Shown here one piece after another: positions 13,346 to 46,387 of a stretch of 64,000 bases of DNA. Position numbers and translations under genes: made by a program. Every line of letters begins with the position of its first letter. Position 1 is the first letter of the stretch. This stretch comes from a virus. Location: the IMG/VR virus record IMGVR_UViG_3300027749_000066, positions 33,487 through 97,486 of that record; one strand, written 5' to 3'. Under the pieces are notes generated by a model. The model was not told the origin of the DNA and searched no databases. It worked only from the letters and a program-made list of their open reading frames with translations.

Positions 13346-13944
13346 TGAGCCTAGTCAGAACTTTAAAAATTAAACATCTTAAGTCAACTACTGTAGTTGG
13401 TATTGATGCTTCGTCTACAGTTATTGCTTTTGCTATTATTGAACAACGTCCAGATAAAGTTAATCTTATTAAGACAAGTAAAATTAATCTTGGCAATTTT
13501 TCAATGAATCAAAAACTAAAGATTATCTCTTCATCTGTTTCTAAAATTTTTGGTATCTATGCTATAGATCATGTTTTTGTTGAGCAACCTATTTATATAC
13601 AAAATCCTGCTACTAGTAGAATTCTTTCTCAAGTTTCAGGTCATCTGCTGGGAGAATGCCTTAAAGAATGTGATAGTGTCTCAGAGGTAACTATTGCTAA
13701 TTGGAAAAGTTATATAGGATATAAGAATGTTAGTAAAGCTGAGAAAGATTCTTGGACAAAGCAATTTGGCGAAAAAGAATCAAAAAAGATGGCGGCGTTT
13801 GAAAGAAAACAAAGAACTATTAATATCATCCATAGAAAAATTCCAGATATAAATTATCTTAATGATAATGATATTTGTGATGCAATTGGTATTGCTCTTT
13901 ATGGACTTGATAAAGTAAATAAAGGAGAACTAGATGCCTCTTGA
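13345..13944 (+). CDS. RuvC-like resolvase
   Basis: VGIDAS, FVEQP, DICDAIGIA. Confidence 0.85.
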   Translation: MSLVRTLKIKHLKSTTVVGIDASSTVIAFAIIEQRPDKVNLIKTSKINLGNFSMNQKLKIISSSVSKIFGIYAIDHVFVEQPIYIQNPATSRILSQVSGHLLGECLKECDSVSEVTIANWKSYIGYKNVSKAEKDSWTKQFGEKESKKMAAFERKQRTINIIHRKIPDINYLNDNDICDAIGIALYGLDKVNKGELDAS

Positions 13945-14230
13945 ACCGTATAAACAAAAAGATTGGTTATATTATCATTATGTTCAAAAAAGAATGAACC
14001 TTAAAGATATGGTTGTTCTTCTTGAACAAAAGTATAATATTAAAATTAGTCATCAGGCTATTTATAACTGGCTAGTTAAATATGATCTTTTGAAATATAG
14101 AGGTAAGGGTAGGAAAATTGGCGCAAATCTTCAGGGCAAGAAAAAATCCAGCGCAATGGGGAAACGTCCTGATAGGATTCGTGAGGAGCGAATGAGAGCC
14201 TTAGCGAGAGCTAAGAAGAAAAAAAGATAG
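13934..14230 (+). CDS. HTH DNA-binding protein
   Basis: YKQKDWLYYHYV...SHQAIYNWLVKY. Confidence 0.7.
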   Translation: MPLEPYKQKDWLYYHYVQKRMNLKDMVVLLEQKYNIKISHQAIYNWLVKYDLLKYRGKGRKIGANLQGKKKSSAMGKRPDRIREERMRALARAKKKKR

Positions 14231-14242
14231 ACTTATATTCTG

Positions 14243-14620
14243 ATGGATGAAGAATATTTATTTTTTGAAGAAGATGACAGAGTACGAGATTTAGTTGTTC
14301 CTCCGTATTCTGAAGTACAAAAAATTCTTTTTGGTATATCATATTTTTTTGCAAATATTTGGAATAACACTATGTTAGATATTGCTAATCATGGTTATAC
14401 TATAGTTGATAAAGAATTGACACCCATGATGATGTTCGATGCCATTGATGCTGGTATAATAATGCCTATCTATGTGCAAAGTCCGGAAAATGCTGATAGA
14501 ATGATTTTCAAGTTCTGGAATCCATTGGAACAAATTTATTGTGATATTGATGAAATGGACTTGGAAGACTTTTATTGGTTTACTGTAATATTAAATAATG
14601 GAATTTGGAGTTATAACTAA
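14243..14620 (+). CDS. hypothetical protein
   Basis: ORF in operon. Confidence 0.6.
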   Translation: MDEEYLFFEEDDRVRDLVVPPYSEVQKILFGISYFFANIWNNTMLDIANHGYTIVDKELTPMMMFDAIDAGIIMPIYVQSPENADRMIFKFWNPLEQIYCDIDEMDLEDFYWFTVILNNGIWSYN

Positions 14621-14943
14621 TGTCTAATACGACTAAAGATGCGTTCAGAATTGTAGAGAAAGAGTTAAGTAAGTTTTGCTCTTATGATAATGTTAAATCT
14701 GTCTTGTCTAAATATATGATTGGGAAATATGATCCCGAACTTGTTGAGAAGCTTCTTGTAATTCTTGGTACAGAATTTCGTCATAATCTTGAAAGACTTA
14801 CGTCGAATCTTCCTGATGATAATGTTGAGGCTGCTGCTGTTGTAAGCAGAAAAGCAGCGAATAAGCGTGGACGCCCTAGGAAGAATGACTTACAGATTGA
14901 AGCTGCTGATGATTTTGATTTTGATGATGTCAAAGAAGACTAA
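14620..14943 (+). CDS. hypothetical protein with AT-hook
   Basis: KRGRPRK and acidic tail. Confidence 0.6.
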   Translation: MSNTTKDAFRIVEKELSKFCSYDNVKSVLSKYMIGKYDPELVEKLLVILGTEFRHNLERLTSNLPDDNVEAAAVVSRKAANKRGRPRKNDLQIEAADDFDFDDVKED

Positions 14944-14966
14944 TCATATATGGTATAATTGTTACT

Positions 14967-15566
14967 ATGGCCAATAAATTAGAGAAATCAGATAATATAT
15001 TTGACAAAGCAAAAAAGGTTGAGCAAGTTGGTTTGCTTAATCTTAAAGGCTATTCTAATTCGGATATTGCTGAACTTGAAAATATTTCTGTTCAGACTGT
15101 TAGGGAGTACGTTTCTCAGTATAAAATTTATCTTGAGAGTACTGCCGAGAATGACCCTTATTTCTTAGAAAAAGTTCAGTATAATACTGTCAAGGCTTTG
15201 GCTGAATTTGATGAGATTTCTAAGGAAGCTTGGGAGACTGTTGAAATTGCCACTAGAGAGGGAATGGTTTCTGGTAGAAATCAAGCCCTCAAACTTTGTT
15301 TAGATATTGCTACTAAAAAAGCACAACTTCATCAACTCATGGGTGGTACTAAAACAGATGGCGAATATATTGCAAGAATGCAAAAAGCCGAAACTGTTAA
15401 TCAAATTATCTCTAAGGTTATTAGAGATGTTATTGCTAATTGCGATGACTGCAAAGCGAAGGCTTCGCCTATGCTTCGTGAGGCTTTCTCTATGATGGAT
15501 TCAGAGTCTGCTGACGATACCGAAGATATTGTTGAGGTATATGAAGATGCAGAAATTATTGATTAG
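14967..15566 (+). CDS. HTH protein, candidate terminase small subunit
   Basis: GYSNSDIAELENISVQTV HTH, helical; upstream of TerL. Confidence 0.55.
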   Translation: MANKLEKSDNIFDKAKKVEQVGLLNLKGYSNSDIAELENISVQTVREYVSQYKIYLESTAENDPYFLEKVQYNTVKALAEFDEISKEAWETVEIATREGMVSGRNQALKLCLDIATKKAQLHQLMGGTKTDGEYIARMQKAETVNQIISKVIRDVIANCDDCKAKASPMLREAFSMMDSESADDTEDIVEVYEDAEIID

Positions 15567-15864
15567 AAAGTTTCCCGAAAAATCCACAGCGGCATGGTGT
15601 TTTATTGGATTTTTTATTTTAATTTATGATGTTATTGCATTGCTTTTAAATGATTCTTCCAAAGAGAAGAAAGATTTTTATGAAACACTTTCTGATGGTT
15701 GTTGGCGTGGTATTGAACATTCAATTTTTCGATGGCCAATTTGGTTATTTATCTTTACAATTGCTAAACATTTAGCTGCTCCAGATTTTTTTCGTAAATA
15801 TGATCCAATAAAAATTGTTGGAATATTTGTAAGATATTTAAAGAAAAGTGTTAATAATGGGTGA
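15529..15864 (+). CDS. membrane protein
   Basis: Hydrophobic segments. Confidence 0.55.
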   Translation: MLRYMKMQKLLIRKFPEKSTAAWCFIGFFILIYDVIALLLNDSSKEKKDFYETLSDGCWRGIEHSIFRWPIWLFIFTIAKHLAAPDFFRKYDPIKIVGIFVRYLKKSVNNG

Positions 15865-17641
15865 TGATTTTTTTGGAACAAATTTAGATCTTAATGATTT
15901 TGAAAAACTTCTTAAGAATGAAGATCTTCTTGAGGAGCCTGTATCATTAGAGAAGTTTGTTACTGATAAACATTATCTCGGTCTTCCTCCTTTAAGTGAG
16001 ATTCAACTTGAGATTGGCAAAAGAATTACTCAAATTTTTAAACCAGAAACTCTTGTTCAACTTATGGGTGAAGAGCAAGGGTTGGAATATTATCACAACT
16101 ACACTGTCAATGAAGTTATTTGTCAGTTAGGAAAAGGTTCAGGTAAAGATCACGTTTCACGCGTGTCTCTTGCTTATATTGCCTATCTGCTTCATTGTCT
16201 TAGAGATCCTCTTGATTACTTTGGCAAAGCTGCTGGTGTTTATATTGATCTTGTCAACCTTGCTGTTAACGCAAAACAGGCGCAACAGGTTTTCTTTGAT
16301 CCTTTAAAGAATCTTCTCTTAGCTTCTCCGTGGGCTAATGAGGTTGGTTTTGAACCTAGAGTTCAGGAGATCTTTTGGTTTAGTCGTCCTGTTCGAATGT
16401 TCTCCGGTCACTCTGAGGCTGAAGGCTGGGAGGGCTATGAAGTTCTTATTGTTGTTCTTGATGAGATCTCAGCATTCAAAACTGATAATGAACTTAAGGG
16501 CCAACTTCGCAATAAGGGTTCTGCTTCAGAAATTTATGACATGGCTCGAGCTTCTATTACTTCTCGCTTTCCAAGTGTTGGAAAAGTTGTTCTTCTTTCT
16601 TTCCCTAGATTCAAAGGAGACTTTATTCAGCAAAGATATAAGTCAGTTATTGACGATTTAATTGAGCATGGTGGAGTTATGCTTGATGAGAAAGTGGGGA
16701 ACCGTGGAGGCTATAGAGAGGCCACTTCGTGGTGCTTAAAAGCTGCAACGTGGGAAGTAAATCCCACTCGTCACCGTGAAGAGTTTGAGAATGAGTTTCG
16801 GCGTGATCCTATTATGGCTCGCGCTCGTTTTGCTTGTGAGCCTCCTGAAATGGTTGATGCTTATTTTCGTGATCCCGAGTCTGTTCGTAATGCATTTAGA
16901 TTTAAAGAAGATCCTCTTGATAATGAAGGACATTACAAAGAGTGGTTTCTAGGCAAAGATCCTCATCCTAGGTACATTCATATCGATCTTGGTCTTAAAC
17001 GAGATCGTGCTGCTCTTTGTATGGTTCACTCTCCGGGTCTTAAGAAGATTAAGACTATGGGTGGTGTTGAAAATCTTCCTATTATTGAGATGGATTATTT
17101 GCAAAGTTGGAAGGCCGAAGATAACTCTGAGATTCCTTTTTCAGAGATTCGTTCTACTATTACAGATCTTACAAAAAGGTTTACTGTTGTATCTGTGACG
17201 TTTGATCAATGGAACTCTGCTGATATGATTCAATCATTGAGAGCTATTGGAGTTAATGCTGATCTGCATACTGTTGCTAAAAAAGATTATGATACTCTTT
17301 CTACCACAATTTACGATGGACGTTTCCGTGGTTATTGGAATAATATTGTTGTTGAGGATGAGCTTTTGAAATTAAAACTTATCAATAATACTAAGGTTGA
17401 TCATCCTTCATCGGGGTCTAAAGATTTAGCTGACTCTGTTGCTGGCGCTACTTTTATGTGTATGACTAATCTTAGTACAGAATTTGAGTTTGATATAGAG
17501 ATATTAGATGAGACTAATTATACATTACTAGAGTCTGAAAATGATACTCATATTGTCGATATGATTTCCAGAAATTTTAAAGAAAATGGGAAGCCAAAGC
17601 AATTGCCAGAAGATATTTCTGATTGGCTTGAGATAATATAA
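15857..17641 (+). CDS. terL: terminase large subunit
   Basis: GKGSGKD Walker A, VVLDE Walker B, HIDLG, FDQW, DHPSSGSKDLAD. Confidence 0.92.
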   Translation: MGDDFFGTNLDLNDFEKLLKNEDLLEEPVSLEKFVTDKHYLGLPPLSEIQLEIGKRITQIFKPETLVQLMGEEQGLEYYHNYTVNEVICQLGKGSGKDHVSRVSLAYIAYLLHCLRDPLDYFGKAAGVYIDLVNLAVNAKQAQQVFFDPLKNLLLASPWANEVGFEPRVQEIFWFSRPVRMFSGHSEAEGWEGYEVLIVVLDEISAFKTDNELKGQLRNKGSASEIYDMARASITSRFPSVGKVVLLSFPRFKGDFIQQRYKSVIDDLIEHGGVMLDEKVGNRGGYREATSWCLKAATWEVNPTRHREEFENEFRRDPIMARARFACEPPEMVDAYFRDPESVRNAFRFKEDPLDNEGHYKEWFLGKDPHPRYIHIDLGLKRDRAALCMVHSPGLKKIKTMGGVENLPIIEMDYLQSWKAEDNSEIPFSEIRSTITDLTKRFTVVSVTFDQWNSADMIQSLRAIGVNADLHTVAKKDYDTLSTTIYDGRFRGYWNNIVVEDELLKLKLINNTKVDHPSSGSKDLADSVAGATFMCMTNLSTEFEFDIEILDETNYTLLESENDTHIVDMISRNFKENGKPKQLPEDISDWLEII

Positions 17642-18817: not shown

Positions 18818-19357
<540 letters not shown>

Positions 19358-34156: not shown

Positions 34157-34441
34157 AAATCGTTCCTTTTCTTGGGGATGGGACTTGCTGACAGATGTAC
34201 CCTATCATGTTTGACTGGTTGCGACAAATCCAAATCTCTGATGTCTCAAATAGATTTTGTGTCCAAAGAGTTTGTGAAAGCTTTTAGCATTAGATTTTCA
34301 CTAAAGTTTACCTTTATGTTTATTCCAACATTTGCGGGCGTTCTCATCGGCTTTTGCTTCTTGATGAGAACGCCCGCCGCTCGGGAACGCCAAGAAGCCC
34401 CACGGCATCGCCGTGGGGCTTCCTGAGGGGCTTGGGGGCCG

Positions 34442-34723
34442 TTAGCGCTTGCGCTTGGCCTTGCGAACCTCGATCTGCGGAATGCCGTTGGCATCGTAGG
34501 AGATCGACGGCTCATCGGCGCGTGCTGCTCGCCAATGCTTGCGGATCATGGCCGAGACTGCGGGCCGGTCCTCGCTTGCCACCTCACCAATGGTAGATGA
34601 CAGGCGCACGCCTTGCTTGTCCGTCACCTTTGCGAGAGTGGCGAGAAGGTCGGCGTTCCACTCGGTCTTCCGCCCTCGGGGGGACTTGACAAACTCCGAG
34701 GGGGAGATGAACTCATCAGACAT
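34442..34723 (-). CDS. 93-aa basic protein, paralog 1
   Basis: Clearly similar end to end to 35047 and 35701; PRGRK; RBS AGGAG. Confidence 0.85.
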   Translation of the reverse strand: MSDEFISPSEFVKSPRGRKTEWNADLLATLAKVTDKQGVRLSSTIGEVASEDRPAVSAMIRKHWRAARADEPSISYDANGIPQIEVRKAKRKR

Positions 34724-35046
34724 AACTACTCCTAAGTGAATCGGCTAGGGCCAGTCCCTAATCCGATGAGGTAAGTATGCCGGAAGGGTCTAGGATCTAC
34801 AACCAACGGAGCATAAACATCAGGTAAACATCAGGTGAACAGCTTCGCGGTTTGGATTTGGGATCATAGTGTTTATGAAAACGTTTTGCTATACATTTGC
34901 ATTAAAGTTTAGCTAAATGTTTATTCCAACATTTGCGGGCGTTCCTGTGGGGTTTTTGCTTCATCCACAGGAACGCCCGCCGCTCGGGAACGCCAAGAAG
35001 CCCCACGGCATCGCCGTGGGGCTTCCTGAGTGGCTCTAGCGGGCGT

Positions 35047-35328
35047 CTAACGCTTGCGCTTGGCTTTCTTGACTTCCACCTGCGGGATGCCCTCGTTTGA
35101 GAACGAGATCGACGGCTCGTCGTTGCGATCCCGACGCCAGTGCTTCCGGATCGACGCCGACACCGCGGCGCGGTCGTCCTTGTCCACGACGCCGATGCTA
35201 TCCCGAAGGACGACGCCCTGCTTGTCGGACACCTTCGCGAGAGTCGCGATCAGTGTCTCGTTCCATTCCGTCTTTCGGCCTCGGGCCGACTTGACGAAAC
35301 TTGCGGGGGAGACGAATTCGTCTGCCAT
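35047..35328 (-). CDS. 93-aa basic protein, paralog 2
   Basis: Paralog; RBS AAGGAG. Confidence 0.85.
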   Translation of the reverse strand: MADEFVSPASFVKSARGRKTEWNETLIATLAKVSDKQGVVLRDSIGVVDKDDRAAVSASIRKHWRRDRNDEPSISFSNEGIPQVEVKKAKRKR

Positions 35329-35700
35329 GATTGTTGCTCCTTGCGCTTGGGCTAGGGCCAGTCCCTAACCACAAGACGTACCTTAGTCTATGGGGTGAGT
35401 CAGAACCTAATCGAAAGGCTCTATGGCGATGGTCATATGTCACACCGTTATGGCTTGCGTCAGCCTGGCCGATGTGCTAGGCGACTTTCGGCCCTAGCAC
35501 AGCCGAAGCTCGAGTGCAAATCGGATTCGGGCGCATACTCAACTATGCATGATTATGCAATCACCTGCGACGGGCGTTCGTCGTCTGAGGAACGAAGACA
35601 CGACGAACGCCCGCAGGCTGACTGGCAGCCTGCGGGCGTCGGTTGTGGGGGGTGCTACTGCCCTCCCCCGAGGCGGGGCGGGGGAGGGCAGACCTTGGGG

Positions 35701-35982
35701 CTAGCGCTTGCCCTTGGTCTTTCTGACTTCCACCTGCGGGATGCCGTCGGCGCTGTAACTGATCGACGGTTCGTCGGTGCGATCACGGCGCCAGTGCTTC
35801 CGGATCATGGCGGAGGTTGCGGGACGCTCGTCCTGTGCGACGGCGCCAACGCTGTCTCGGAGGACGACACCCTTGGCGGGGGTCACCTTGGCGAGCGTGG
35901 CGATGAGTGTTTCGTTCCACTCAGTCTTGCGCCCTCGGGGTGAGCGAGCGAACTCACTCGGGGAGATGAACTCATCTGACAT
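35701..35982 (-). CDS. 93-aa basic protein, paralog 3
   Basis: Paralog; RBS GAAAGG. Confidence 0.85.
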   Translation of the reverse strand: MSDEFISPSEFARSPRGRKTEWNETLIATLAKVTPAKGVVLRDSVGAVAQDERPATSAMIRKHWRRDRTDEPSISYSADGIPQVEVRKTKGKR

Positions 35983-36285
35983 GGGGACTGCCTTTCACGT
36001 TTGCGGTTGAGCCACTCCCAACCGCTGAAGGTACCGTATCATAGGTGAGTTAGGGGATGCCACTCAGAATGGGGTTAGAACCAAGATTTCTCAGTGTGAC
36101 ATCTGACCATCAGAAATGACTTGCGCTGTACCCTCGAGCTATGGTAGGGCCATTTCGGTTCCTAGCACACATTCCACCCAAGACGCAAATCAGATCACCT
36201 GCGGCGGTCGTTCCTCTACGGTAGTGCGTGTAGAGGAACGACCGCAAAGCGCAAAGCCCCAGCCTTTCGGCTGGGGCTTTTCTTG

Positions 36286-36720
36286 TCAGGGCCGCTGTCC
36301 GGTTTCCTCTTCTATTCGCTTGAGAGTTTCGGGGAAGTAGGGTCCATCTCGCAAGATTTGATTCAGTTCATCATGATATCCTCGGAGGTAGAAGCTGAAG
36401 AGGTCATGATAGAGTTCTGAGATTTCATCGTAGTCGAAACCGTAGACGATGAGATCCAACATTTGCTCGTTGGTGATTTCTCTAAGGCTGAGATACTTGC
36501 GCCAGTTGCGAGGGTAGGCGACGATGGGAATGTTCTTGTCGTCAAAAGTGACTAGCACCGGCTGATTGTGTTCTAGTTCCCAATGCGCGGTGATCATGTC
36601 TCGCACAGCTGTTCGATTGGTCCATTCCACTGGTCCTACGGTACTGACTAGGCGTGCTGATTGGTGAAAGCTCACGCCGCGTAGTGTTTCTAGTAGTTGT
36701 TGGCTGTAGTTGGTTTCCAT
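36286..36720 (-). CDS. divergent 4th paralog with C-terminal extension, leaderless
   Basis: N-half aligns with 93-aa family (LL.TL..V....RL.ST.G.V....R.AV..MI..HW); TTGACA..TAGGGT 7 nt before ATG. Confidence 0.75.
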   Translation of the reverse strand: METNYSQQLLETLRGVSFHQSARLVSTVGPVEWTNRTAVRDMITAHWELEHNQPVLVTFDDKNIPIVAYPRNWRKYLSLREITNEQMLDLIVYGFDYDEISELYHDLFSFYLRGYHDELNQILRDGPYFPETLKRIEEETGQRP

Positions 36721-36944
36721 AGGGTGAACCCTAGACGATGGATCGGTGCCGTGTCAACTCCAAATGCACACTAAATCTCACTAGAGAAGATATCTATATT
36801 TGGCGGCCGTGCATCCGAGGAACGAGGATGGCACGCACGGCCGCCTGTGGATAACTCTGTGGATAACTGTTTCTCCGACAACGCAGAAGCGCCCTCGGGA
36901 AACTCCCGAGGGCGCTTTGCCGGTACCTCACCTCCCTTGTGAGA

Positions 36945-37448
36945 TCAGTCCATGTAGCCGTTGTTGACGAACCACAGGCGAGCGCCGTACACGCTTTCGG
37001 GGACCGTGGCGTCCTCTTGGCGGTAGAGGTCTTCCAGCGTGTCGAACTGTTCGGCCAGTTCGATTCCGGCATTCTCTCGCCCTTGGCGTTCGATCAGTTC
37101 CTGTTCGTTGGAATCGAAACCACCAGCGGAAGGGTTGGACCACAGTGAAAGAATGTCTAGCGGCATGGAAGTCGATCCGCCGTGGGGGTGATGAATGGTG
37201 AAGTCGATCAGTCGCGTTGTTATCGAAGTGTGGAATGTTGTTGTGATGGTTGTGAACCCATTCCCATACGACTGGACGAACTGAATGAACTCTGTGCATG
37301 ATCCGTTGTCGTGCATCGTGATCGTGCTCACGGGTGCGTCAACCCTGTAGCCCATGCGCATCATGCGCCAGCACAGGGTTCGGGGGATTGGGGAGAGCGA
37401 CGCAATCTGCGCCACGGAAAGATTCGTCTCCATCAGAATATCGGACAT
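36945..37448 (-). CDS. hypothetical cassette protein
   Basis: RBS GGAGG; followed by hairpin 36886-36919. Confidence 0.65.
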   Translation of the reverse strand: MSDILMETNLSVAQIASLSPIPRTLCWRMMRMGYRVDAPVSTITMHDNGSCTEFIQFVQSYGNGFTTITTTFHTSITTRLIDFTIHHPHGGSTSMPLDILSLWSNPSAGGFDSNEQELIERQGRENAGIELAEQFDTLEDLYRQEDATVPESVYGARLWFVNNGYMD

Positions 37449-37687
37449 GACAACCTCCAGTCGTACCGGCACCCGTTGTGCCGATGGCAAACGATACCAT
37501 AGTTCCAACAGTGCGTGTAGTGTTTTCCCACGTATTCCAGGTATTGTTTACCTAATGTTCATGTTCGGCGGGCGCACTCTTCCGCAGGAAAAGATAGCGG
37601 GGCGCCCGCGCCGCGAAAAAGTTATCCACAGGTTTGTCCACAGGCTGGGTGCTGCTGGCCCCCGCCCGAAGGCGGGGGCCGAGTGGA

Positions 37688-38110
37688 TCATTCGTAATAG
37701 CTGTTGTCATCATCGTGATCCGGCCCGCAGTTGCCACGGATGATGCGAACGCTGAAATAGCCTTCCGGCTCTTGGGTGAGCGTGGGGAACACGCGAGGGT
37801 TGCCATCTTCGAATCGTTCGATCCATTCGAACGCCTTGTCCAGACTCGGAACCTGACGAGAGGCGACACGCTTGCGCGTGGTGAACCACCAACCACCCTC
37901 CTCGGGTCCGCCGTACTCAGAGCAGACATCGTACACTGAGATCCACCACACGCCGTCACCGGCCGAGTCGCGGTCGATCTCGCCGGATGTCGCGCAGTAG
38001 GCGCCGTGATCAGTCATCATCTGCGCGTACTCCGGCCCGCGATCGGGAGTCCAGATTTCGGCAATCTGGCCGCAGATGTTGCAAGTGGCGGGGGAAGTGA
38101 CTTCGGACAT
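37688..38110 (-). CDS. hypothetical cassette protein
   Basis: YGGPEEGGWW motif; RBS GGAGG; stop in hairpin A. Confidence 0.75.
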   Translation of the reverse strand: MSEVTSPATCNICGQIAEIWTPDRGPEYAQMMTDHGAYCATSGEIDRDSAGDGVWWISVYDVCSEYGGPEEGGWWFTTRKRVASRQVPSLDKAFEWIERFEDGNPRVFPTLTQEPEGYFSVRIIRGNCGPDHDDDNSYYE

Positions 38111-38353
38111 GGGAACCTCCGGTTCGTGCGTGACACCATGCCACGCACAAGGAATGGTAGTCGATTCAAGTTGTCAGTGCAAGTGTTTCCCATAGTGTTT
38201 CGATATGCACCAGGAATACACTCAAGAATGAATATTTATGCAACAATATTTGGCGGCCGTGCATTCTGAGGAACGAAGAATGCACGCACGGCCGCCTGTG
38301 GATAAACCTGTGGAAAACTGCTGGCCCCCGCCCGAAGGCGGGGGCCGAGTGGA

Positions 38354-38593
38354 TCAGAGATCTCGCTCAAGCGCCCAGAGGACGCCTTCGAGCCACATTT
38401 CGGCTCGAATGAGATCGTCGAACTCCTCGTAGTCTGCGGACTCGTAGCGGACTCCATCGTGCTTGAAGATGCGCACGACCCATGAGTCTGATCGCCAATT
38501 CTGATCGTGGACGATGGTTCCGAAGAACTCTCCATCGTCGGTGGATGTGCCTTGGGTGGGGGTGGGTACCCACTGTGTGGTGTATTTCTTCAC
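38354..38593 (-). CDS. hypothetical cassette protein, leaderless
   Basis: Stop in hairpin A; TTGCGC..GAGACT 6 nt before GTG. Confidence 0.7.
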   Translation of the reverse strand: MKKYTTQWVPTPTQGTSTDDGEFFGTIVHDQNWRSDSWVVRIFKHDGVRYESADYEEFDDLIRAEMWLEGVLWALERDL

Positions 38594-38792
38594 GACGAAA
38601 GTCTCCCACAGTTGGGGATTCGGCGCAAGTCAATCGGGAAGATTTGCGTGCTACCACGCACATTCTATTTCTCTGGAGAAGATATCTATATTTGGCGGCC
38701 GTGCATCCGAGGAACGAGGATGGCACGCACGGCCGCCGTCCACAGCCTGTGGAAAACTGCTGGCCCCCGCCCGAAGGCGGGGGCCGAGTGGA

Positions 38793-39176
38793 TCAGGCTA
38801 GATCGAAGAACCTGATGACATCCGAGTATGTCGGTTCGTCGATCTTGGTGGTTCGGCCATCGGTCCCCTTGATGGCAGCGTTGAGGATTTCCACTCCGGA
38901 GAATCCATCTTGTTCGGTGGCGTAGATTCCGATGTGCGCTCGCTCTACGCCACGGACCATCCACAGTGATGCAACGGTGCGAACCTCATCACTGTAGCGG
39001 ATCGAAGCTTCGGCCTCGTTACCGAAGACTGGCTTGGTGATACCGTTCGGGCCGGTCCATCCGTTGCGAAGCATCAGAGTGAAAAATCCGATGAGGTAGC
39101 GGGCGGATACCGGCTGGCTGATGTTGGTGTTGCGGGCTGGAGTGTCTACCAGCTTTTTGGTGTGGGTGGTTCCCAT
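38793..39176 (-). CDS. hypothetical cassette protein, leaderless
   Basis: TTGACA..TAAACT 7 nt before ATG; stop in hairpin A. Confidence 0.7.
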   Translation of the reverse strand: MGTTHTKKLVDTPARNTNISQPVSARYLIGFFTLMLRNGWTGPNGITKPVFGNEAEASIRYSDEVRTVASLWMVRGVERAHIGIYATEQDGFSGVEILNAAIKGTDGRTTKIDEPTYSDVIRFFDLA

Positions 39177-39390
39177 GAGGAGCAGTTTAGGGATGGCGAC
39201 AGTTGTTGTCAAGTGTTTTGCGTGCTACCACGCACATTCAAAGTTGTCTAGAAATGTTCTCTAGTTCGGCGGGCGCACTGATCCGTCGAAAAGCAAACGG
39301 AGCGCCCGCGCCGGGCAAAGGTTATCCACAGGCTGTGGATAACTCTGTGGAAAACTGCTGGCCCCCGCCCGAAGGCGGGGGCCGAGTGGG

Positions 39391-39729
39391 TCACTCTACT
39401 GTGATTCCGAAACCATCTTCGCGACGACTGTGGGTCTTGACTTCGATGAGGAGATCATCTTCGAAGTATGGAACGGGTGAGACGCATTCGTCTTCATCGC
39501 ACCATGTTCGCGTCTCATGATCGTAACAGTCATGCTCCATGCCAACAGTTGGGCGGGTGATAAAAATTGTTGCGATGAGGATTCCCCCAAGGAAGATCTC
39601 AACTCCTGCAGAGTCGTTCCACGTTACTGCGTTGAATGCTGTCACTTTCGGCATGATGCCGTTCAGCATGAGTTCGGATGGGGTTGCCGGAGTTTCCGGC
39701 TGGGATGAGGTACCGCTTGTGTTGTTCAC
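39391..39729 (-). CDS. hypothetical cassette protein, leaderless
   Basis: TACCAT 6 nt before GTG; stop in hairpin A. Confidence 0.7.
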   Translation of the reverse strand: MNNTSGTSSQPETPATPSELMLNGIMPKVTAFNAVTWNDSAGVEIFLGGILIATIFITRPTVGMEHDCYDHETRTWCDEDECVSPVPYFEDDLLIEVKTHSRREDGFGITVE

Positions 39730-40049
39730 GTTGTCATGGTACAGGAGCCAAGTGAACGCACAATGGTTTTTGGGTAAACAGAAGATGAATCTTTTTGTTC
39801 ACTTTCTGTTCATCGTTTCTTTATGTAGATGAACATTGGGTGAACTTTTTTGTTCATGTTCTGTTAGCTCAATGTTCACCATATATTCATCTTTTGTTCA
39901 TCTTCCGTTCATGTTCGGCGGGCGCATTCTCCCATCAGAAAAGACAATGGGGCGCCCGCCGCCCGGTTTTCCACAGGTTTGTCCACAGGCTGTGGATTGT
40001 TGTGGTGCCTGTGGACAACTCCGCTGGGGAGTTGTCCACAGGCTGGGGA

Positions 40050-40475
40050 TCAGACTGCCGAAATCCAGTGGCGGATGTCGATGATTGTTTCCGTGAGAGT
40101 GTCAGTCTCATCAAGGAACGATACAGTTCCGTCTGTGTAGACCCTTGCTTGTGTGCAACGGTCATCGACGCTGGAATCGTCGGTTCGGAAGACTGACATT
40201 ATCGCAACGCCGTTGTCCTCTATGACGGTCACAGAATGAATGAATCCGCCAACATTGGTGACATGTGTTGCAATGTGACGAACCGACTCACTGATGCCCA
40301 TACGAAGCAGAGCATCATAGGTGCGAACGGCGTTCATGCTAGATGCGCCGCTACAGTCAGACATATGGCCAAGAAACAGAACCCATGCGGGGACGGAGCC
40401 AAGGCGTGCGACTGCTGCCGTGGCGGGGACTGCCAGAACCTCTGGCGGGGTGAGGTACTTCTGTGTGTTGTTCAC
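40050..40475 (-). CDS. hypothetical cassette protein, leaderless (family with 40879, 43524)
   Basis: MNN...VPAWVLFLG; TAGGGT 6 nt before GTG. Confidence 0.7.
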   Translation of the reverse strand: MNNTQKYLTPPEVLAVPATAAVARLGSVPAWVLFLGHMSDCSGASSMNAVRTYDALLRMGISESVRHIATHVTNVGGFIHSVTVIEDNGVAIMSVFRTDDSSVDDRCTQARVYTDGTVSFLDETDTLTETIIDIRHWISAV

Positions 40476-40878
40476 AGAATCACCCTAGTGCCGATTGCGT
40501 CCGGATTGCAAGCCAGAAGGCCGATTTTCACCAGGTTTTTGTGGTCATATGTCACACTGTTTGGACTTGACAATGGTTGGTGAGATGAGCTAGACTCTCA
40601 AATCCCACAAGATTGGTGGGGTTTGCATTCCCCACAAAGTTGGTGGGAATGAGCTAGCACATCAAAGTGAACTTTGAATGAATGGAAGGTAAACAGAAGA
40701 TGAATTCTTTTGTTCATCATATGTTCATCTTTTGTTCATCTTCCGTTCATGTTCGGCGGGCGCATTCTCCCATTGGAAAAGAATATGGGGCGCCCGTCGT
40801 CGGGCAATGTTTTCCACAGGCTTGTCCACAGGCTGTTGGGAACTGCTGGCCCCCACCCGAAGGTGGGGGCCGAGTGGA

Positions 40879-41289
40879 TCACTCTCCGGTGATGTACTTC
40901 CGGATGATTCGGAGAGCCGAGAGGAGCGTATCGTCGTGCTCGTTCCAGTAGTCCAGCGTTCTACTCATCCAGATCCCATCGGGATGGATGGTCATCTCGG
41001 CATGGTTGTATCCGTGGCCGATGTCGATTGTCACGTTGCCACCATGCACCCATGTGGACTGAATGCGGCCACCGAGTGAATCGACAGTGTGGGCGATCTT
41101 GATGATCGAACACCCAAAGTGATTCGCGCTTGTGGGTGCGATTGTGTTCAGCGCAACGAGAGCCGTCTGGAGAGTTGTTCCAGAGAAGTTATCCACGGTG
41201 ATTTCACCGAGGAGCATGGCCCAAGTTGGGACGGTGGATGGGACTGACAGAGCCTCTGTCGGGGTGAGGTGCTGCTGTGCGTTGTTCAC
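40879..41289 (-). CDS. hypothetical cassette protein, leaderless
   Basis: MNN...VPTWAMLLG; TACCCT 6 nt before GTG; stop in hairpin A. Confidence 0.72.
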   Translation of the reverse strand: MNNAQQHLTPTEALSVPSTVPTWAMLLGEITVDNFSGTTLQTALVALNTIAPTSANHFGCSIIKIAHTVDSLGGRIQSTWVHGGNVTIDIGHGYNHAEMTIHPDGIWMSRTLDYWNEHDDTLLSALRIIRKYITGE

Positions 41290-41593
41290 GTTGTCAGGGT
41301 ACCAGCTCCAAGTGAACGCAAGGTGAACGGACGGTGGAATCGGGGTGAATGTTGAAGATTCACCTGCTGTTCACCTTCCCTTTATGTGAATGAATTTTGA
41401 ATGAACAGAAGATGAACAAAAGGTGAAATGTTTTATTCACCATGTGTTAACCTAAAGTTCACCGAATGTTCATGTTGGGCGGGTGCATTCTTCCGCAGAA
41501 AAAGAAAGCGGAGCACCCGCCGCCGACTTTTCCACAGGTTTGTCCACAGGCTGGGTGCTGCTGGCCCCCGCCCGAAGGCGGGGGCCGAGTGGA

Positions 41594-42214
41594 TCAGGCT
41601 CCGATGCTCATCATCTTCCGGAAGATTGCGAGGGTGATCTCGGCGTCAACCTCGGCACGATGGCTGAACGGAACGTGAATCCCGAACCGCTCGGCAGTGG
41701 CCTTCAGGTTGTGACGACCCTCGGTGAACATGAGTCGGGACATTCCGAGAGTGCAGAACGTGCCAACCTTGGGAGCCTTGACTCCGGCTCGGTGCAATTC
41801 CACCACGATGAACGAATGATCGAACGATGCGTTGTGCGCCACGAATGTTGCGTTCCGCATCATCTCCCGAACCTTGGGGGCGATGTCTGCGAACGTCGGA
41901 GCGTGCATCACCATCGCATCAGTGATGCCGTGAATCTCGGTGGCACCAGTGTCGCGGTTCGGGTTCACCAGTGACACGAACCGACGAACCTCGCGACCCT
42001 TGGCGTCGATGCGGATCATTGCGATTTCGATGATCCGTTCCGAATGGGCATCCAAGCCAGTGGTCTCAACATCGACAACCACGCGATCGCCCGAGCGCAG
42101 AAGATCGCGAACGATGTTGTAGGTGCAATGGGCGAGAGTGAGAAACGCTCCCACGATGCATGATGCGATGACGAACCCGACAGGCTCGGAGACTGCGGAG
42201 TAGACAGTGTTCAT
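41594..42214 (-). CDS. DEDDh 3'-5' exonuclease (DnaQ-like) with N-terminal hydrophobic helix
   Basis: DVETTG, HGIT, VAHNASFD, HRAEVDA; RBS AAGGAG; stop in hairpin A. Confidence 0.9.
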   Translation of the reverse strand: MNTVYSAVSEPVGFVIASCIVGAFLTLAHCTYNIVRDLLRSGDRVVVDVETTGLDAHSERIIEIAMIRIDAKGREVRRFVSLVNPNRDTGATEIHGITDAMVMHAPTFADIAPKVREMMRNATFVAHNASFDHSFIVVELHRAGVKAPKVGTFCTLGMSRLMFTEGRHNLKATAERFGIHVPFSHRAEVDAEITLAIFRKMMSIGA

Positions 42215-42384
42215 GATTTCTCCTTGCTAGGTGCCGGTGGACTCTCCCCCGACAAAGACAAGTATTGCAGGCCCAAGTGAACATAGGATTGTGGGAAGGT
42301 GAACAGAAGGTGAATTCATTTGTTCATCAAAAATTCATCTGTTTTTTATGAAGATGAATTCTTGGTGAATTTTGAGCTAAATTT

Positions 42385-42759
42385 TTGTCCACAGGGTTAT
42401 CCACAGGCGGCGGCCGTGCATCCGAGGAACGAGGATGGCACGCACGGCCGCCATCCACAGGTTTTTCCACAGGCTGTGGATAACTTTCGGTTGTCCACAG
42501 GTTTTTCCACAGGCGGGGAGAAGTTGTCCACAGGTGAGGGGAGTTCTCCACAGGGTTGTCCACAGGTTGCCTGTGGATGAGGGTGTGGAAAACTGTTGTC
42601 CACATGGTTGTCCACAGAGGCTGAGTGGTTGTCCACAGTTTCCACAGGTTTGTCCACAGGTTTGTCCACAGGCGCAGATCCTGGAGGCAGTGGTTGTCCA
42701 CAGGGCTGGGGAAAACCCTGTGGACAACGAGCCTGGGCCTGTGGAGTGAGTTTTCCACA
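42385..42759. repeat. oriC-like cluster of >20 DnaA boxes
   Basis: TTGTCCACA/TTATCCACA/TTTTCCACA and reverse, many at 12-bp spacing, next to AT-rich 42300-42385. Confidence 0.88.
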
Positions 42760-42774
42760 GGCCCAGCCGTCGGG

Positions 42775-43020
42775 TCAGAGCCAGTCGCCGGGATTCAGGA
42801 ATGCATCGGAACACTCTCGGCAGATGAGATCTCCCGAATCCATGTTCTGATATGTCGGATGCCATCCAGTGATCTCCCCATCCGTGACGATGGCGCCGAT
42901 GGGTTCACTGGCACAGTAGTGGCAGTTGTCGGCCAATGGCATTCCGATGCGCTCGGATGTTTCGATGAGAAACTCATCGGCGATGTGGCAGATGTTCGCG
43001 GTGTTCGGGTTGATGGTCAT
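42775..43020 (-). CDS. zinc-finger-like small protein
   Basis: CHYC..CREC; RBS GAAAGAG. Confidence 0.65.
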   Translation of the reverse strand: MTINPNTANICHIADEFLIETSERIGMPLADNCHYCASEPIGAIVTDGEITGWHPTYQNMDSGDLICRECSDAFLNPGDWL

Positions 43021-43077
43021 TGTGTTCTCTTTCGTGTGTTCTGGTTGGTGTTGGGTTGGGATGGAAGGACAGCGTGG

Positions 43078-43526
43078 GTCCGGCACCGGAGTGCCGGACC
43101 CTGCCGGTCAGATCGACACTCGGCCAGTGTCTCGGGCGAGGTAGACAACCGGAATCAGATCATGGTGTGGGGACACCATCGTGTAGTAGTTTCCGTTGGT
43201 GTGGCCGTGGATGCCCCGACCGTTCTGATCGATGAATCCCGGAGCGCACACTGCCGATGAGAACGTGTAGCCGAGAGTGTTGAGGATGGTGATGGTGGTA
43301 TCAATCCGATCGGAGTGATGCATCATCGGGACGCTGTAATCCGCCTCGGTGAGTAGAGCCTCTACGACTGAGGCGATGGTCTCGGCCGAGAGTCGGATGG
43401 TGGTGGTGGTGGTGTTCGGGTTGGTGTTCATTGTGTATTCCTATCTGTTCTAGTTGGTTGGTTTGTTGGTGTGGAAGGACTACCGGAGCGGGTCCGGCAC
43501 CGGAGTGCCGGACCCTGCCGGTATCA
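43078..43526. repeat. hairpin-C pair GGTCCGGCAC-CGGA-GTGCCGGACC
   Basis: 43077-43110 and 43491-43526, each abutting an ORF stop; partial third copy at 44011. Confidence 0.75.
43108..43431 (-). CDS. hypothetical protein
   Basis: RBS AGGA; poly-Thr N-terminus. Confidence 0.65.
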   Translation of the reverse strand: MNTNPNTTTTTIRLSAETIASVVEALLTEADYSVPMMHHSDRIDTTITILNTLGYTFSSAVCAPGFIDQNGRGIHGHTNGNYYTMVSPHHDLIPVVYLARDTGRVSI

Positions 43527-43979
43527 CCAGCCGGAGCCGGTGGGGAAGTTGGAGCCGGTGAACCAGCGGAGGAGCGCAGCCGCTTCCGGCATCGTGACGG
43601 TACCGTGTTGGGTGATTTCGCAGCCACCATCGAACGTGGTGGTTTGAACCTTCACGCGGCCCGCCTCGTAGATGGTGGCAGTGAGGCTAGCGCCGGTAGC
43701 GTTGTGAGCGGTTACTTCGACGTAGTTGTTGAACACATCAGTGCAATACACCTCGGCATCGTTCTGACCGCAGTAGGCAATCCATCGGATGACTCCGTGG
43801 AGTCGGCTAGCCGGTGATGCCATGAGTGCGAGGTAGCCGCGGGCGTGGGCGTTGGCGTTGGGCGTGTAGCCGTGGCGCAGGTCGGCCATGCTTCCGGCGA
43901 ACATGACCCACGACTCTACGAGCGCCGGAATATCCGCCGGTCGGGGAGTGGTGGTGGTGGTGGTGGTTGCGTTGGTCAT
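43524..43979 (-). CDS. hypothetical protein (family with 40050/40879)
   Basis: VESWVMFAGSM similar to VPAWVLFLGHM; RBS GAAAGG. Confidence 0.65.
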   Translation of the reverse strand: MTNATTTTTTTPRPADIPALVESWVMFAGSMADLRHGYTPNANAHARGYLALMASPASRLHGVIRWIAYCGQNDAEVYCTDVFNNYVEVTAHNATGASLTATIYEAGRVKVQTTTFDGGCEITQHGTVTMPEAAALLRWFTGSNFPTGSGW

Positions 43980-44378
43980 GGCTGACCCTTTCGGTGAGTG
44001 GGTGCCGGTCGGTCCGGCACCTCGGTACTGCGTAGTCAGACTACACCCGCGGGGGGGGGGCCGCGCCAGTTTTGGGGCCGATTTCTGATCGGATTTGGTG
44101 GTCATATGTCACACCGATTTCGGCCACATCGTCGGCCGAACTGTGCTAGGGGAGCTCGAGGTCAATCTCCACCAGATCGGTGGGGATTGTACCCCACCAG
44201 TTTAGTGGGGAAGCCAGGATCTGGGATAGAGGGCAGCCTTGTCTGAGCGTGTGTTAAATTTTTGTCTTTTTTTGGTTTGACAAATAAAATTGCCCTTCAA
44301 GCTGGGGGTGTGCTTGAGGGGCGGGGGGTTGCTTTTTTTGTTTTTTTGTGTGTTGGGGCTAGATGTCCCAGTTGGGGG

Positions 44379-44489
44379 CTAGATGTCCCAATTTGGGGCT
44401 TCGTCGGGTTCGTCGTCCCATTGGATTTCGTCGGGATAGTCGGGGATGGGGATGGTTTCGGGTTCGATTTCGATGATTGTGGGGGTCAT
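44379..44489 (-). CDS. 36-aa acidic peptide
   Basis: MTPTIIEIEPETIPIPDYPDEIQWDDEPDEAPNWDI, TAATG-coupled. Confidence 0.45.
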   Translation of the reverse strand: MTPTIIEIEPETIPIPDYPDEIQWDDEPDEAPNWDI

Positions 44490-44695
44490 TATTCTTCTTC
44501 TTCGTAGTCGTATTCGTATTCGGCGTCTTTTTTGGCTTGTTGGAGGGCGATTGTGAGCATTCCGATGGTTTCGTAGGCTGCGAGTTCTTCGTCTGTGTCA
44601 ATTTCGATGCCGAGGTGTCCGTCTTCGTCTAGTACTTTGCTGATGATGATGGTGCCGAGTGTGATTCCGGTGTTTTGTTCGGTGTTTTCGTCCAT
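44489..44695 (-). CDS. small acidic protein, leaderless
   Basis: TGATACACT 6 nt before ATG. Confidence 0.65.
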   Translation of the reverse strand: MDENTEQNTGITLGTIIISKVLDEDGHLGIEIDTDEELAAYETIGMLTIALQQAKKDAEYEYDYEEEE

Positions 44696-44763
44696 GTGTT
44701 TAGTGTATCATGGTGGTGTTTTTGTGGCGATGGGGGTTTGGCCGGTTTTTTGTTGCGGTTGTG

Positions 44764-45378
44764 TTACTTTTTGTTGGCTTGGTGGATTGCTTTGGCGAAT
44801 CCGTTGGGTGTGACCGATCTTTTTTCGGCTCTGTCGGCGCTTGGTGGTAGGTTGTTGAGTTTGTTTTTGTTGGTTGGTTGTACATATTTTGTTTCTGGCA
44901 TGATGAAGCCGTTTCCGGTCCATAGGCAGGTGCGTTTGTAGTAGGCTTCTTCTTCTGGGTTGTCTAGGTAGCCTGCGTAGTCTGTTGGTTGGAAGATGTA
45001 GTCGGGTTTTCTCCAGTATGTTGAGATGGTTGATACTGGGTTTTCGATCATGTATGGTGCGTCGGACCATTCTGCGATTTTTACGCAGGCTTCTACGACT
45101 TGGAGGGCTTCGACTAGACCTGTGAGGCCTTTGTCGTGGAAGTATCGGGCGCCGGAGACTGCGACGTTTGTGCAGGGTGGAAATCCGAATACTATTTCGT
45201 ATTCTGTTCTTGGTGGAAGCCATTTGGTGATGTCAGCACCGATTGTGGTGAGATTTCCGGTTTTTTTGGTTCCTTTGGGGTGTTGTGTGTCTACGATCAT
45301 GCATTCGTAGCCTGCTTCCAGCCACGGTTGGACGATGTTCCCTGTTTTGTCACAAAGTGATAGTACTAGTTTTGTCAT
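44764..45378 (-). CDS. C5 cytosine DNA methyltransferase (short phage type)
   Basis: VLSLCD.TG, FPPCT, IENPV, YYKRTCLW, RSVTPNGFA. Confidence 0.85.
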   Translation of the reverse strand: MTKLVLSLCDKTGNIVQPWLEAGYECMIVDTQHPKGTKKTGNLTTIGADITKWLPPRTEYEIVFGFPPCTNVAVSGARYFHDKGLTGLVEALQVVEACVKIAEWSDAPYMIENPVSTISTYWRKPDYIFQPTDYAGYLDNPEEEAYYKRTCLWTGNGFIMPETKYVQPTNKNKLNNLPPSADRAEKRSVTPNGFAKAIHQANKK

Positions 45379-45407
45379 TTGTCAAGTTTATCATGTTTTG
45401 TATGGCA

Positions 45408-45433
45408 GAAAAGACCCCTTCGGGGGTCTTTTC
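45408..45433. terminator. bidirectional terminator
   Basis: GAAAAGACCCC-TTCG-GGGGTCTTTTC. Confidence 0.85.
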
Positions 45434-45475
45434 TTGTGCTGCTTAGGGTTTATCGCCCTCCGATTGATTATTTTA

Positions 45476-45694
45476 TCATAGAACGGGGTGATTGTCAGGG
45501 ATTTGTTTGTCATTAAATACGATTTCATGACCGTAGAGGCGAATTACTGGGACGCACGGGTCATCTCCATTATCCCACATTTCTATTTCTTTGTCACTCA
45601 TCGGTATTCCGTCGTGTGTGTCACATACCGGGTTTGAAATCCACCCTTTTGCGACACCGTATGTTAACCATTCGTTGTATTTTTCCCAACTCAT
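45476..45694 (-). CDS. hypothetical protein
   Basis: GW.S.PVC.THDG...GDDPC pattern. Confidence 0.7.
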   Translation of the reverse strand: MSWEKYNEWLTYGVAKGWISNPVCDTHDGIPMSDKEIEMWDNGDDPCVPVIRLYGHEIVFNDKQIPDNHPVL

Positions 45695-45915
45695 CTTTGA
45701 ACCTCTTCAATATTGGAGAATAATTGTTCTTCTGTTAGCTTTGATGATATTGATAAGATCTTTGGTGTTACTGGAGAAGTTGTTTTAACTTCGTGTGGTC
45801 CTATTGCACCACAAAACCAGCATTTTTGGGGGTTAAACTTATCAATACTCCAAGCACAACCACATTCACATAGGAAAGCTTTAACATATTTTGTAGAAGA
45901 ATCCATTGACTTCAT
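45691..45915 (-). CDS. zinc-ribbon protein
   Basis: CECG..CWFC. Confidence 0.55.
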   Translation of the reverse strand: MKSMDSSTKYVKAFLCECGCAWSIDKFNPQKCWFCGAIGPHEVKTTSPVTPKILSISSKLTEEQLFSNIEEVQR

Positions 45916-45936
45916 GATATCACAAAAAACGGGATA

Positions 45937-46245
45937 TTAGGATTTCTTCAGCTTATTATTCTTTAAATATAGATGAACCTTATATAGAACTAGATAGCCT
46001 ATAAGGTCGTCTATAACATCTTCATCTTCGTCTTCTTGTTGGTTTAGTACCCTTGATAGTTTATCGTCTATGCGAACTTTGAGTGCATCTCCTGTATCAC
46101 CTTTGTGGAAGATACTTACTGGTTCAAGGGCGGAGTTGCCGTATTTCCTATTTTTTGTGATAAGTAGTTCTTTGATTTCATCACATTTTTTTGCTATAAG
46201 TGTGGGTACGTCCATGTGTTCTCCTGTGCTCTGAGAGGTCATTAT
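45937..46245 (-). CDS. Nmad1/DUF1599-like all-alpha NTP-pyrophosphatase
   Basis: KNRKYGNSA, RIDDKLSR, DLIGYL. Confidence 0.8.
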   Translation of the reverse strand: MMTSQSTGEHMDVPTLIAKKCDEIKELLITKNRKYGNSALEPVSIFHKGDTGDALKVRIDDKLSRVLNQQEDEDEDVIDDLIGYLVLYKVHLYLKNNKLKKS

Positions 46246-46387
46246 ATTGCCTTCTAAGAGGTTTGAAATACGTTTTAAGGTATTCTTGCTGCTCTTCAAG
46301 TTTATCAAGGTTTATTGAGGTTTTTGGGGTTTGTTGGTTACTAGATACTAATCTGGCGACCGGACCGAGATTACATTATAACAACGA

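Follow-up and report, generated by a model that had tools for sequence, protein, structure and literature searches.

The question raised by this locus was how a row of small, mostly unrelated genes came to end, one after another, on copies of the same hairpin, and by what means such genes might be gained and lost. The locus lies in the IMG/VR virus record IMGVR_UViG_3300027749_000066 (97,486 bp, judged 94% complete), of which a 64-kb window, positions 33,487 to 97,486 of the record, was analysed; coordinates below are those of the window unless another genome is named. An earlier note on this DNA had described an integron-like array of single-gene cassettes. Our results point instead to terminator/promoter modules that are probably shuffled by homologous recombination, in a manner like that of the promoter-early stem-loop (PeSL) cassettes of T4-type phages, in a hyperplastic and probably early block of a freshwater actinophage of about 97 kb. 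Two relatives served for comparison, L007, a contig of 29 kb, and G001 (also L026), of 96.7 kb.

The 39-nt repeat, hereafter hairpin A, was present in six copies, all on the minus strand (0 expected from shuffles), and none was found across the rest of the 97.5-kb genome. It folded into a GC stem of 10 bp, free of mismatches and capped by a UUCG loop. Bases 1-3 of all six copies formed an in-frame TGA stop, each of a different open reading frame (ORF), as the earlier note had claimed. Copy 1 (41558-41596; -27 kcal/mol) closed the exonuclease ORF 41594-42214, copy 2 (40843-40881; -30.1 kcal/mol) the ORF 40879-41289, copy 3 (39355-39393) the ORF 39391-39729, copy 4 (38757-38795) the ORF 38793-39212, copy 5 (38318-38356) the ORF 38354-38593, and copy 6 (37652-37690) the ORF 37688-38110. 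Four of the six copies were identical; copy 3 carried TGAC for TGAT, and copy 2 the paired change of GCC/GGC to ACC/GGT, already noticed earlier, which preserved the stem. The module alignment showed that similarity between the copies began precisely at the TGA, the preceding 13 nt being unconserved. A seventh ORF (40050-40475) ended in TGATCC followed directly by the DnaA-box segment, a hairpin of two inverted DnaA boxes (40005-40052, minus strand; -33 kcal/mol); it thus bore the same module minus the hairpin A part of about 35 nt, a remnant as the earlier note had said. No exact match to hairpin A was found in viral, metagenome and genome contig collections. A search of Rfam at the gathering threshold returned tRNAs only, so that the hairpins were not explained by any known ribozyme or RNA family.

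Hairpin A was one part of a longer module. An alignment of nine intergenic regions revealed the same order from gene to gene that had been read from this DNA before: the stop codon with a gene-proximal hairpin, DnaA boxes, a second hairpin (B1 or B2), an AT-rich spacer, and the predicted promoter of the next gene. Each module was about 180-330 nt long with two hairpins, and these folded at -27 to -36 kcal/mol, all without U-tails. The gene-proximal hairpin was of family A in six cases, a DnaA-box palindrome in one and a unique terminator in one. Family A was paired with B1 four times and with B2 twice, the palindrome with B1 once, and the unique terminator with B2 once; these mixed pairings indicate past exchanges at the DnaA boxes that separate the two hairpins. 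Hairpin B1 (41479-41520, 40756-40797, 39918-39959, 39269-39309, and 37568-37609, minus strand) was a conserved stem-loop immediately before the AT-rich/promoter region of the next gene, and hairpin B2 (42410-42451, 38695-38736, 38253-38295, and 36803-36844, minus strand) was defined by alignment and folding. Across the 16 hairpin B copies of the window and L007, the outer stem was preserved throughout, three of the eight pairs showing compensatory changes.

The DnaA-box-like 9-mers (TTNTCCACA) between 36846 and 41548 stood in pairs or triplets, always between hairpins A and B, at the cassette joints. Counted as strict TTNTCCACA 9-mers they numbered one to three per module, and not the two to five given earlier. 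They were often paired with 3-bp gaps, or 12 bp from start to start. A cluster of about 18-20 such 9-mers filled 42385-42759 upstream of the exonuclease gene, followed by a hairpin B2 and an AT-rich phased array. The window held 38 boxes compared with 3.6 expected, and 36 of the 40 boxes in the genome lay in the island described below. A search of viral contigs for the exact tandem pair gave 23 loci, and the L007 contig was the only one among them that was related to the window. The 22 unrelated IMG/VR contigs included several with 7-14 boxes in 5-13 kb (e.g., L051 and L034); it may be that viral contigs carry DnaA-box clusters more often than is appreciated, or that host origin regions are among these contigs.

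The AT-rich spacers (about 42282-42370, 41317-41473, 40672-40750, and 39757-39912) contained [GA]TTCA[CT] hexamers at an 11-bp phase in both orientations and ran into the putative promoters. The hexamers reached 18.9 per kb compared with 3.06 per kb genome-wide, with 17 neighbour pairs spaced by 11 bp, and are candidate binding sites of a response regulator. Near its start codon each unit had a -10-like and often also a -35-like element of its own, and its stop was followed by a strong hairpin. In several cassette genes, the GTG or ATG start lay 6-7 nt past a TANNNT box, the leaderless style common in actinobacteria.

The hairpin A array formed the central part of an island of about 10 kb. The extent given before, 36780-42260, was too narrow: about 15 small genes, all leftward, filled 34300-44200, the only GC-rich block of the genome (55-60% GC within a 36% GC genome). 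The GC content at third codon positions (GC3) was 0.69 for the island as against 0.28 for the backbone. The island ORFs are real genes: they showed the coding signature GC3>GC1>GC2, and in a variant strain (run X5) their single-nucleotide polymorphisms (SNPs) were 21 synonymous and 12 nonsynonymous. The phage encodes five tRNAs (Val-UAC, Ile-UAU, Lys-UUU, Leu-UAA, and Arg-UCU), and the codons that these read were rare in the island (TTA 0%, AGA 2%, ATA 3%, GTA 8%, and AAA 10%) compared with 12-44% in the backbone, which suggests that translation of the island relies solely on host tRNAs. An assembly chimera was considered and rejected, because the GC-rich block stood at the same site in three independent assemblies (this record, L007, and G001) and contigs of the Logan assemblies spanned both edges.

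A comparison with the relatives revealed that the contents of the island had been replaced. The flanking genes were shared with L007 and G001 at 54-82% amino-acid identity, whereas between the conserved right flank and a family of 93-residue genes neither relative had essentially any genes in common with the window, nor had the two relatives with one another. DNA homology between the window and the relatives within the island was confined to the DnaA-box/hairpin B modules and the 93-residue genes. The layout of L007 resembled that of the window, with a DnaA-box cluster (L007 5690-6046, the counterpart of the cluster above), at least 12 11-bp repeats running into TTGACA, and hairpin B; its gene-proximal hairpins were a separate family that shared only a short CACTC leader with the window. 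In G001 a further, different hairpin-promoter module was present in about 20 copies, along with AT-rich repeats at a 12-bp phase; its DnaA boxes numbered only nine, so the lineage can do without a large DnaA-box cluster. The G001 repeat was found in viral contigs only in G001 itself and in one stray. Since each genome had its own homogenised repeat family, the repeats appear to have evolved in concert through recombination. In G001 (L026) at 13500-16000, the arrays were of CTAAATAGGTAC-like repeats at a 12-bp phase, as against the 11-bp-phased GTTCAY repeats of the window, and this difference in phasing suggests a different DNA-binding partner in G001. The L007 contig and those of three further relatives (L021, L022, and L023) ended at or inside the island, which assembles poorly, like repeated or strain-variable DNA; public assemblies therefore under-represent the region systematically.

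Natural variants were analysed in assembled (Logan) contigs of runs X1-X5, and one of them caught the loss of a single unit. Hairpin C, a sister repeat, occurred in two exact 33-nt copies (43076-43108 and 43490-43522, minus strand; -30.1 kcal/mol) flanking the gene 43108-43431. In a contig of run X3, position 43075 was joined to 43490, with 414 nt missing, namely that gene and one copy of hairpin C; at the joint, 33 nt fitted both sides, inside the 33-nt terminator repeat. The leaders behind the two copies (43432-43489 and 43055-43075) were alike, CA-rich and ending in ...ACACAATG, so that the C-type repeat unit exceeds its 33-nt exact core. The idea of the earlier note that genes are exchanged as self-contained cassettes was borne out by this unit-sized indel and by the replaced contents of the relatives. 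Its further expectation, that changes of content would coincide with breakpoints in the repeat, held in part: content was replaced and a one-gene indel fell at a repeat, but at hairpin C, about 1 kb outside the extent given before, and not at hairpin A. A joint of 44671 to 39118 in run X4 was set aside because its sides were shorter than 30 nt. The loose-end sequences of the variant contigs found no place in this genome or in the relatives.

These observations are best brought together by PeSL-like shuffling, which we consider probable. Each small gene would be a transcription unit of its own, with an actinobacterial-style and often leaderless promoter, the ORF, and a stop codon abutting a stable GC hairpin that would act as terminator. 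The terminators would belong to families A and C, with some unique ones, and would be followed by a DnaA-box pair or triplet, hairpin B, the AT-rich 11-bp-phased spacer, and the next promoter, the reiterated modules insulating the genes from one another. Because the modules are the only homology among otherwise unrelated genes, they are proposed to be the site where recombination adds, deletes, duplicates, or replaces whole genes. The agent would be homologous recombination, by the phage RecA-like protein or host RecA, or copy-choice between repeats. The start of the repeat at a stop codon may also follow from this process, and it is proposed that gene conversion keeps the module copies alike as far as the first coding-constrained base. 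The earlier claim that the repeat supplies the stop codons was right in that TGA heads all six copies, but it was overstated. TGA was the stop in six of the nine other island genes, so that six TGAs in a row would arise by chance at about 0.09, and the register varied in the sister repeats: TGA plus 1 nt or a 1-nt overlap in hairpin C, TGA plus AA or an overlapping TAA in L007, and, for G001, a stop lying 5-8 nt upstream of the repeat.

Several points weigh against this reading. No joint was found within hairpin A in the variant contigs, and the sole indel lay at the sister repeat C, just beyond the extent given in the earlier note. The other variant breakpoints (42003 and 43861) were within genes, so the mosaicism is not all at repeats. 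The relatives, with their differing repeat families, were too diverged for old breakpoints to be placed. A scan for E. coli-type promoters found 10 compared with 7.4 expected and thus no enrichment; a scan for E. coli-type terminators was likewise without enrichment, and both outcomes are what signals of actinobacterial type would give. The activity of promoters and terminators, the timing, and the binding of DnaA are all predicted from the sequence.

The integron comparison that prompted the earlier note was weighed on the same evidence. Integrons are marked by an adjacent IntI tyrosine recombinase, by attC sites, whose imperfect palindromes contain R/L core sites (GTTRRRY) as well as extrahelical bases, and by promoterless cassettes expressed from a common promoter, Pc. 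If an unseen or host-encoded site-specific recombinase captured and excised single genes at the 39-nt repeat as at an attC site, a one-orientation row of single, mostly unrelated genes would be expected, each ending at a repeated palindromic element, as was observed, and the repeat did begin at the stop codon in six of six copies; the genome, moreover, is only 94% complete. However, the earlier note had seen no integrase in the window, and the rest of the genome yielded no tyrosine, serine, or HUH recombinase either: searches for a tyrosine recombinase (PF00589), a resolvase, a Y1 HUH enzyme, and RecT found none in the whole record, while the controls responded. Of the two agents named before, phage RecA and an unseen recombinase, only the first had a counterpart, the RecA-like gene at 10455-11345 (plus strand; PF00154, 56.7 bits), and the genome yielded no other recombination protein. 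Features of attI or attC were absent; hairpin A is a perfect stem with a tetraloop and has neither core sites nor extrahelical bases. Every unit had its own promoter-like and terminator elements (predicted) instead of a shared Pc, the repeats of the sister phages were unrelated in sequence, and the 33-nt ambiguity of the indel was as from homologous exchange. An integron-like origin is therefore extremely unlikely.

Two further explanations dispense with shuffling at the repeats. The repeats could be terminators or insulators with DnaA and regulator sites that are alike by selection, the genes being turned over by unrelated illegitimate events. The two breakpoints inside genes, the structural selection on hairpin B, and the lack of a junction at hairpin A in the variants are all in keeping with such a regulatory role. 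Four copies of hairpin A were nevertheless identical over 39 nt although a compensatory change is tolerated, which argues for recent exchange or conversion and not selection alone; the sub-elements were mixed and matched, the single clean indel ran exactly between two repeats, and each genome had its particular homogenised family. We regard this explanation as unlikely. Tandem duplication of one ancestral unit (gene, stop, and terminator), followed by very fast protein divergence and mainly without foreign genes, would explain the paralogs in the island (three proteins of 93 residues with one of 144, and 40879 with 40050) and the MNN N-termini shared by the ORFs 39391, 40050, and 40879. The exonuclease (Pfam RNase_T) and the 140-residue protein of a PHROG family are, however, clearly of separate origin, the six hairpin-A ORFs had no pairwise similarity, and the most similar modules were not neighbours, which makes duplication as the main source very improbable.

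The likeness to PeSL elements, an analogy first drawn in the earlier note, holds at the level of design. PeSL elements run from the stop codon of the upstream gene to the next start (PMC2839356; PMC4122927), and the modules described here are likewise composite intergenic elements of a stem-loop terminator and a host-type promoter (both predicted) over that span. In both systems, the copies are confined to a hyperplastic, ORFan-rich region, and the modules mark indels or replacements between relatives, in our case once, at hairpin C. In contrast to the T4-type elements, the modules belong to a phage with actinophage-like siphovirus relatives, are unrelated in sequence, and are longer, with two hairpins; they also have DnaA-box pairs at the joints, 11-bp-phased arrays, and actinobacterial or leaderless promoters, and lie in a block about 20 GC points richer than the genome. 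The replisome, terminase, and gene order are Stanwilliamsviridae-like, so the system would be PeSL-like in its working and not a PeSL member by descent.

The lineage was placed by the backbone, which encodes DnaB, DnaG, Pol III alpha, the RecA-like protein, ribonucleotide reductase (RNR), ThyX, deformylase, amidase, Rpf, terminase, and portal. DnaE and TerL were about 40% identical to those of Streptomyces BE-cluster phages (the best tblastn matches of TerL reached 40% over 98% of the protein), and the order of DNA methyltransferase (MTase)/ThyX, glycosyltransferase, RNR, and portal was that of phage Wakanda. Stanwilliamsviridae-like actinophages are thus indicated by the replisome, terminase, and gene order, and a distant tie to the BE cluster by DnaE, terminase, and gene order. 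Megablast searches with the island and with the backbone found no match among 50,697 phage records. The Rpf-type transglycosylase domain (18830-19357; PF06737, E 1.4e-34), an actinobacterial hallmark, together with the tRNAs for A-ending codons, points to an actinobacterial host that is GC-richer than the phage. The DNA of the phage was found in freshwater metagenomes. At the right edge of the island, the DNA methyltransferase gene (44764-45378, minus strand; phrog_757, E 1.3e-62) was common to G001 (74% identity). It lay with two tiny ORFs in a third compositional zone (44200-45400; 47-49% GC) whose coding strand was extremely A+C-rich (AT skew to -0.6); this zone was present in G001 as well.

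This placement raises the possibility that the block is the long direct terminal repeat of the phage, collapsed in assembly, for which the chances seem evenly balanced. In run X1, the island contigs (35001-43490) had a depth of 19-23 compared with 11-12 in the backbone (about 1.8x). GC bias was rejected as the source of the doubled depth, because the contig 43493-46369 holds 700 bp of 60% GC and yet had a depth of 11, like the backbone. Against a doubled block, the depth excess was only about 1.2x in X3, and two co-occurring strains sharing the island could explain the roughly twofold depth in X1. BE1 phages have direct terminal repeats of about 10.8 kb, which hold 20-25 small ORFs and were identified from a doubling of coverage (Hughes et al. 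2018, PMC5764925). The terminal repeat of phage Warpy (L029, 1-10800) was transcribed leftward and, at 55-59% GC compared with 46-48% outside, was 8-10 points GC-richer than the adjacent genome; its small genes were separated by repeated GC hairpins as well as promoter-like motifs. The genome announcement makes no mention of this GC excess or of the intergenic hairpins. The BE-cluster phages are the nearest relatives in DnaE and terminase, and their repeats of about 10.8 kb, with small genes of unknown function, occupy the same map position as the island, beside MTase/ThyX, glycosyltransferase, RNR, and portal. Unlike the island, the Warpy repeat has no DnaA boxes, and the two share no genes but for one weak match.

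Early regions of other phages offer further parallels. In SPO1, the host-takeover module is described as some 26 small early genes that have strong promoters of their own and lie in a terminal region of 12.4 kb (Stewart et al. 1998, as cited in PMC6873191). The island resembles it in having small genes with their own predicted promoters in a block of about 10 kb; SPO1, however, is a Bacillus myovirus with genes in operons and not in single-gene units, and early expression is demonstrated there and only presumed here. In the left terminal repeat of T5 (injection stop signal), DnaA boxes are paired with 3-bp gaps in inverted repeats of the pre-early region, and an origin there is unlikely (bioRxiv 10.1101/866236). 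The island has this pairing of consensus DnaA boxes across 3 bp in common with T5. It differs in number and place: T5 has eight boxes at one untranslated site, whereas the island has 36, about 20 of them clustered and the others behind the terminator of each gene, with binding predicted in both. A fuller scenario joins these parallels. The block would be a terminal repeat that enters first, its host-codon genes would be expressed before the phage tRNAs, and host DnaA, bound to the pairs that follow each terminator and to the cluster of about 20 boxes, would both insulate the units and define the recombination joints. We put this forward tentatively and consider it quite unlikely; within it, bound DnaA may in addition halt the incoming DNA, the role that has been proposed in T5.

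The cassette genes themselves, all on the minus strand, were diverse. The first encodes a DEDDh (RNase T/DnaQ-type) 3'-5' exonuclease (41594-42214; PF00929, E 1.2e-33; phrog_192) behind a Shine-Dalgarno-type leader. Its N-terminal 35 residues or so were hydrophobic and membrane-anchor-like, and co-occurring strains carried a version diverging after about codon 70 (loose end at 42003, three runs). The ORF 40879-41289 (136 residues, an ORFan) starts with a GTG 6 nt after a TACCCT -10 of leaderless type, and is a paralog of the ORF 40050-40475 (141 residues; BLASTP E 1e-8), in which four X5 SNPs were all synonymous. The earlier description of the six hairpin-A ORFs as unrelated was thus correct among themselves, as BLASTP found no pairwise similarity, but passed over this kinship of 40879 with the remnant cassette. 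The ORF 39391-39729 (112 residues, no family) has its GTG 6 nt after a TACCAT -10, and the ORF 38793-39212 (127-139 residues, an ORFan) has TTGACA, 17 nt, and TAAACT upstream of an ATG at 39176. The 136- and 127-residue proteins had no relatives among 5.8 billion proteins. The ORF 38354-38593 (79 residues) belongs to no family, and the ORF 37688-38110 (140 residues) to a widespread family of small phage proteins (phrog_24642, E 3.8e-5), with 12 distant homologs in unrelated phage contigs; these contigs showed ordinary phage surroundings and no comparable island.

The remaining genes of the island lie on both sides of the array. The ORF 36945-37508 (167-187 residues) has its own unique terminator (36885-36945), followed by DnaA boxes and hairpin B2. 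The 93-residue family comprises four paralogs, three of 93 residues (34442-34723, 35047-35328, and 35701-35982) and one of 144 (36286-36720), and is the only island gene family common to the window and both relatives. Members of the family were mostly located on short contigs, and no match in metagenome contigs was confirmed. A structure model (pLDDT 73) had no significant match in the PDB, and the ESM Atlas gave only unnamed viral clusters below 0.9. Three further small genes lie at 43524-44105, 43108-43431, and 42775-43086.

The principle of such shuffling is already known from the T4-type PeSL elements. What is distinctive here is the DnaA-box pairs at each joint, the cluster of about 20 boxes, the phased arrays, and the host-like codon usage in an AT-rich phage. 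Our results would extend PeSL-type shuffling from T4-like coliphages to an uncultured lineage of freshwater actinophages, in which one gene-sized indel was caught at a repeat. The DnaA-box pairs and the 11-bp arrays provide concrete handles on whether the phage recruits host DnaA and a response regulator, and if the terminal-repeat scenario were true, an actinophage would here possess a cassette exchanger that works without a recombinase and is framed by a host factor. In addition, the block offers about 15 ORFan proteins whose targets are probably host processes. Finally, the genome is split with unusual sharpness between an AT-rich backbone served by its own tRNAs and a GC-rich accessory block that shuns exactly those codons, which leads to a testable idea on how low-GC phages may express their first genes in high-GC hosts.

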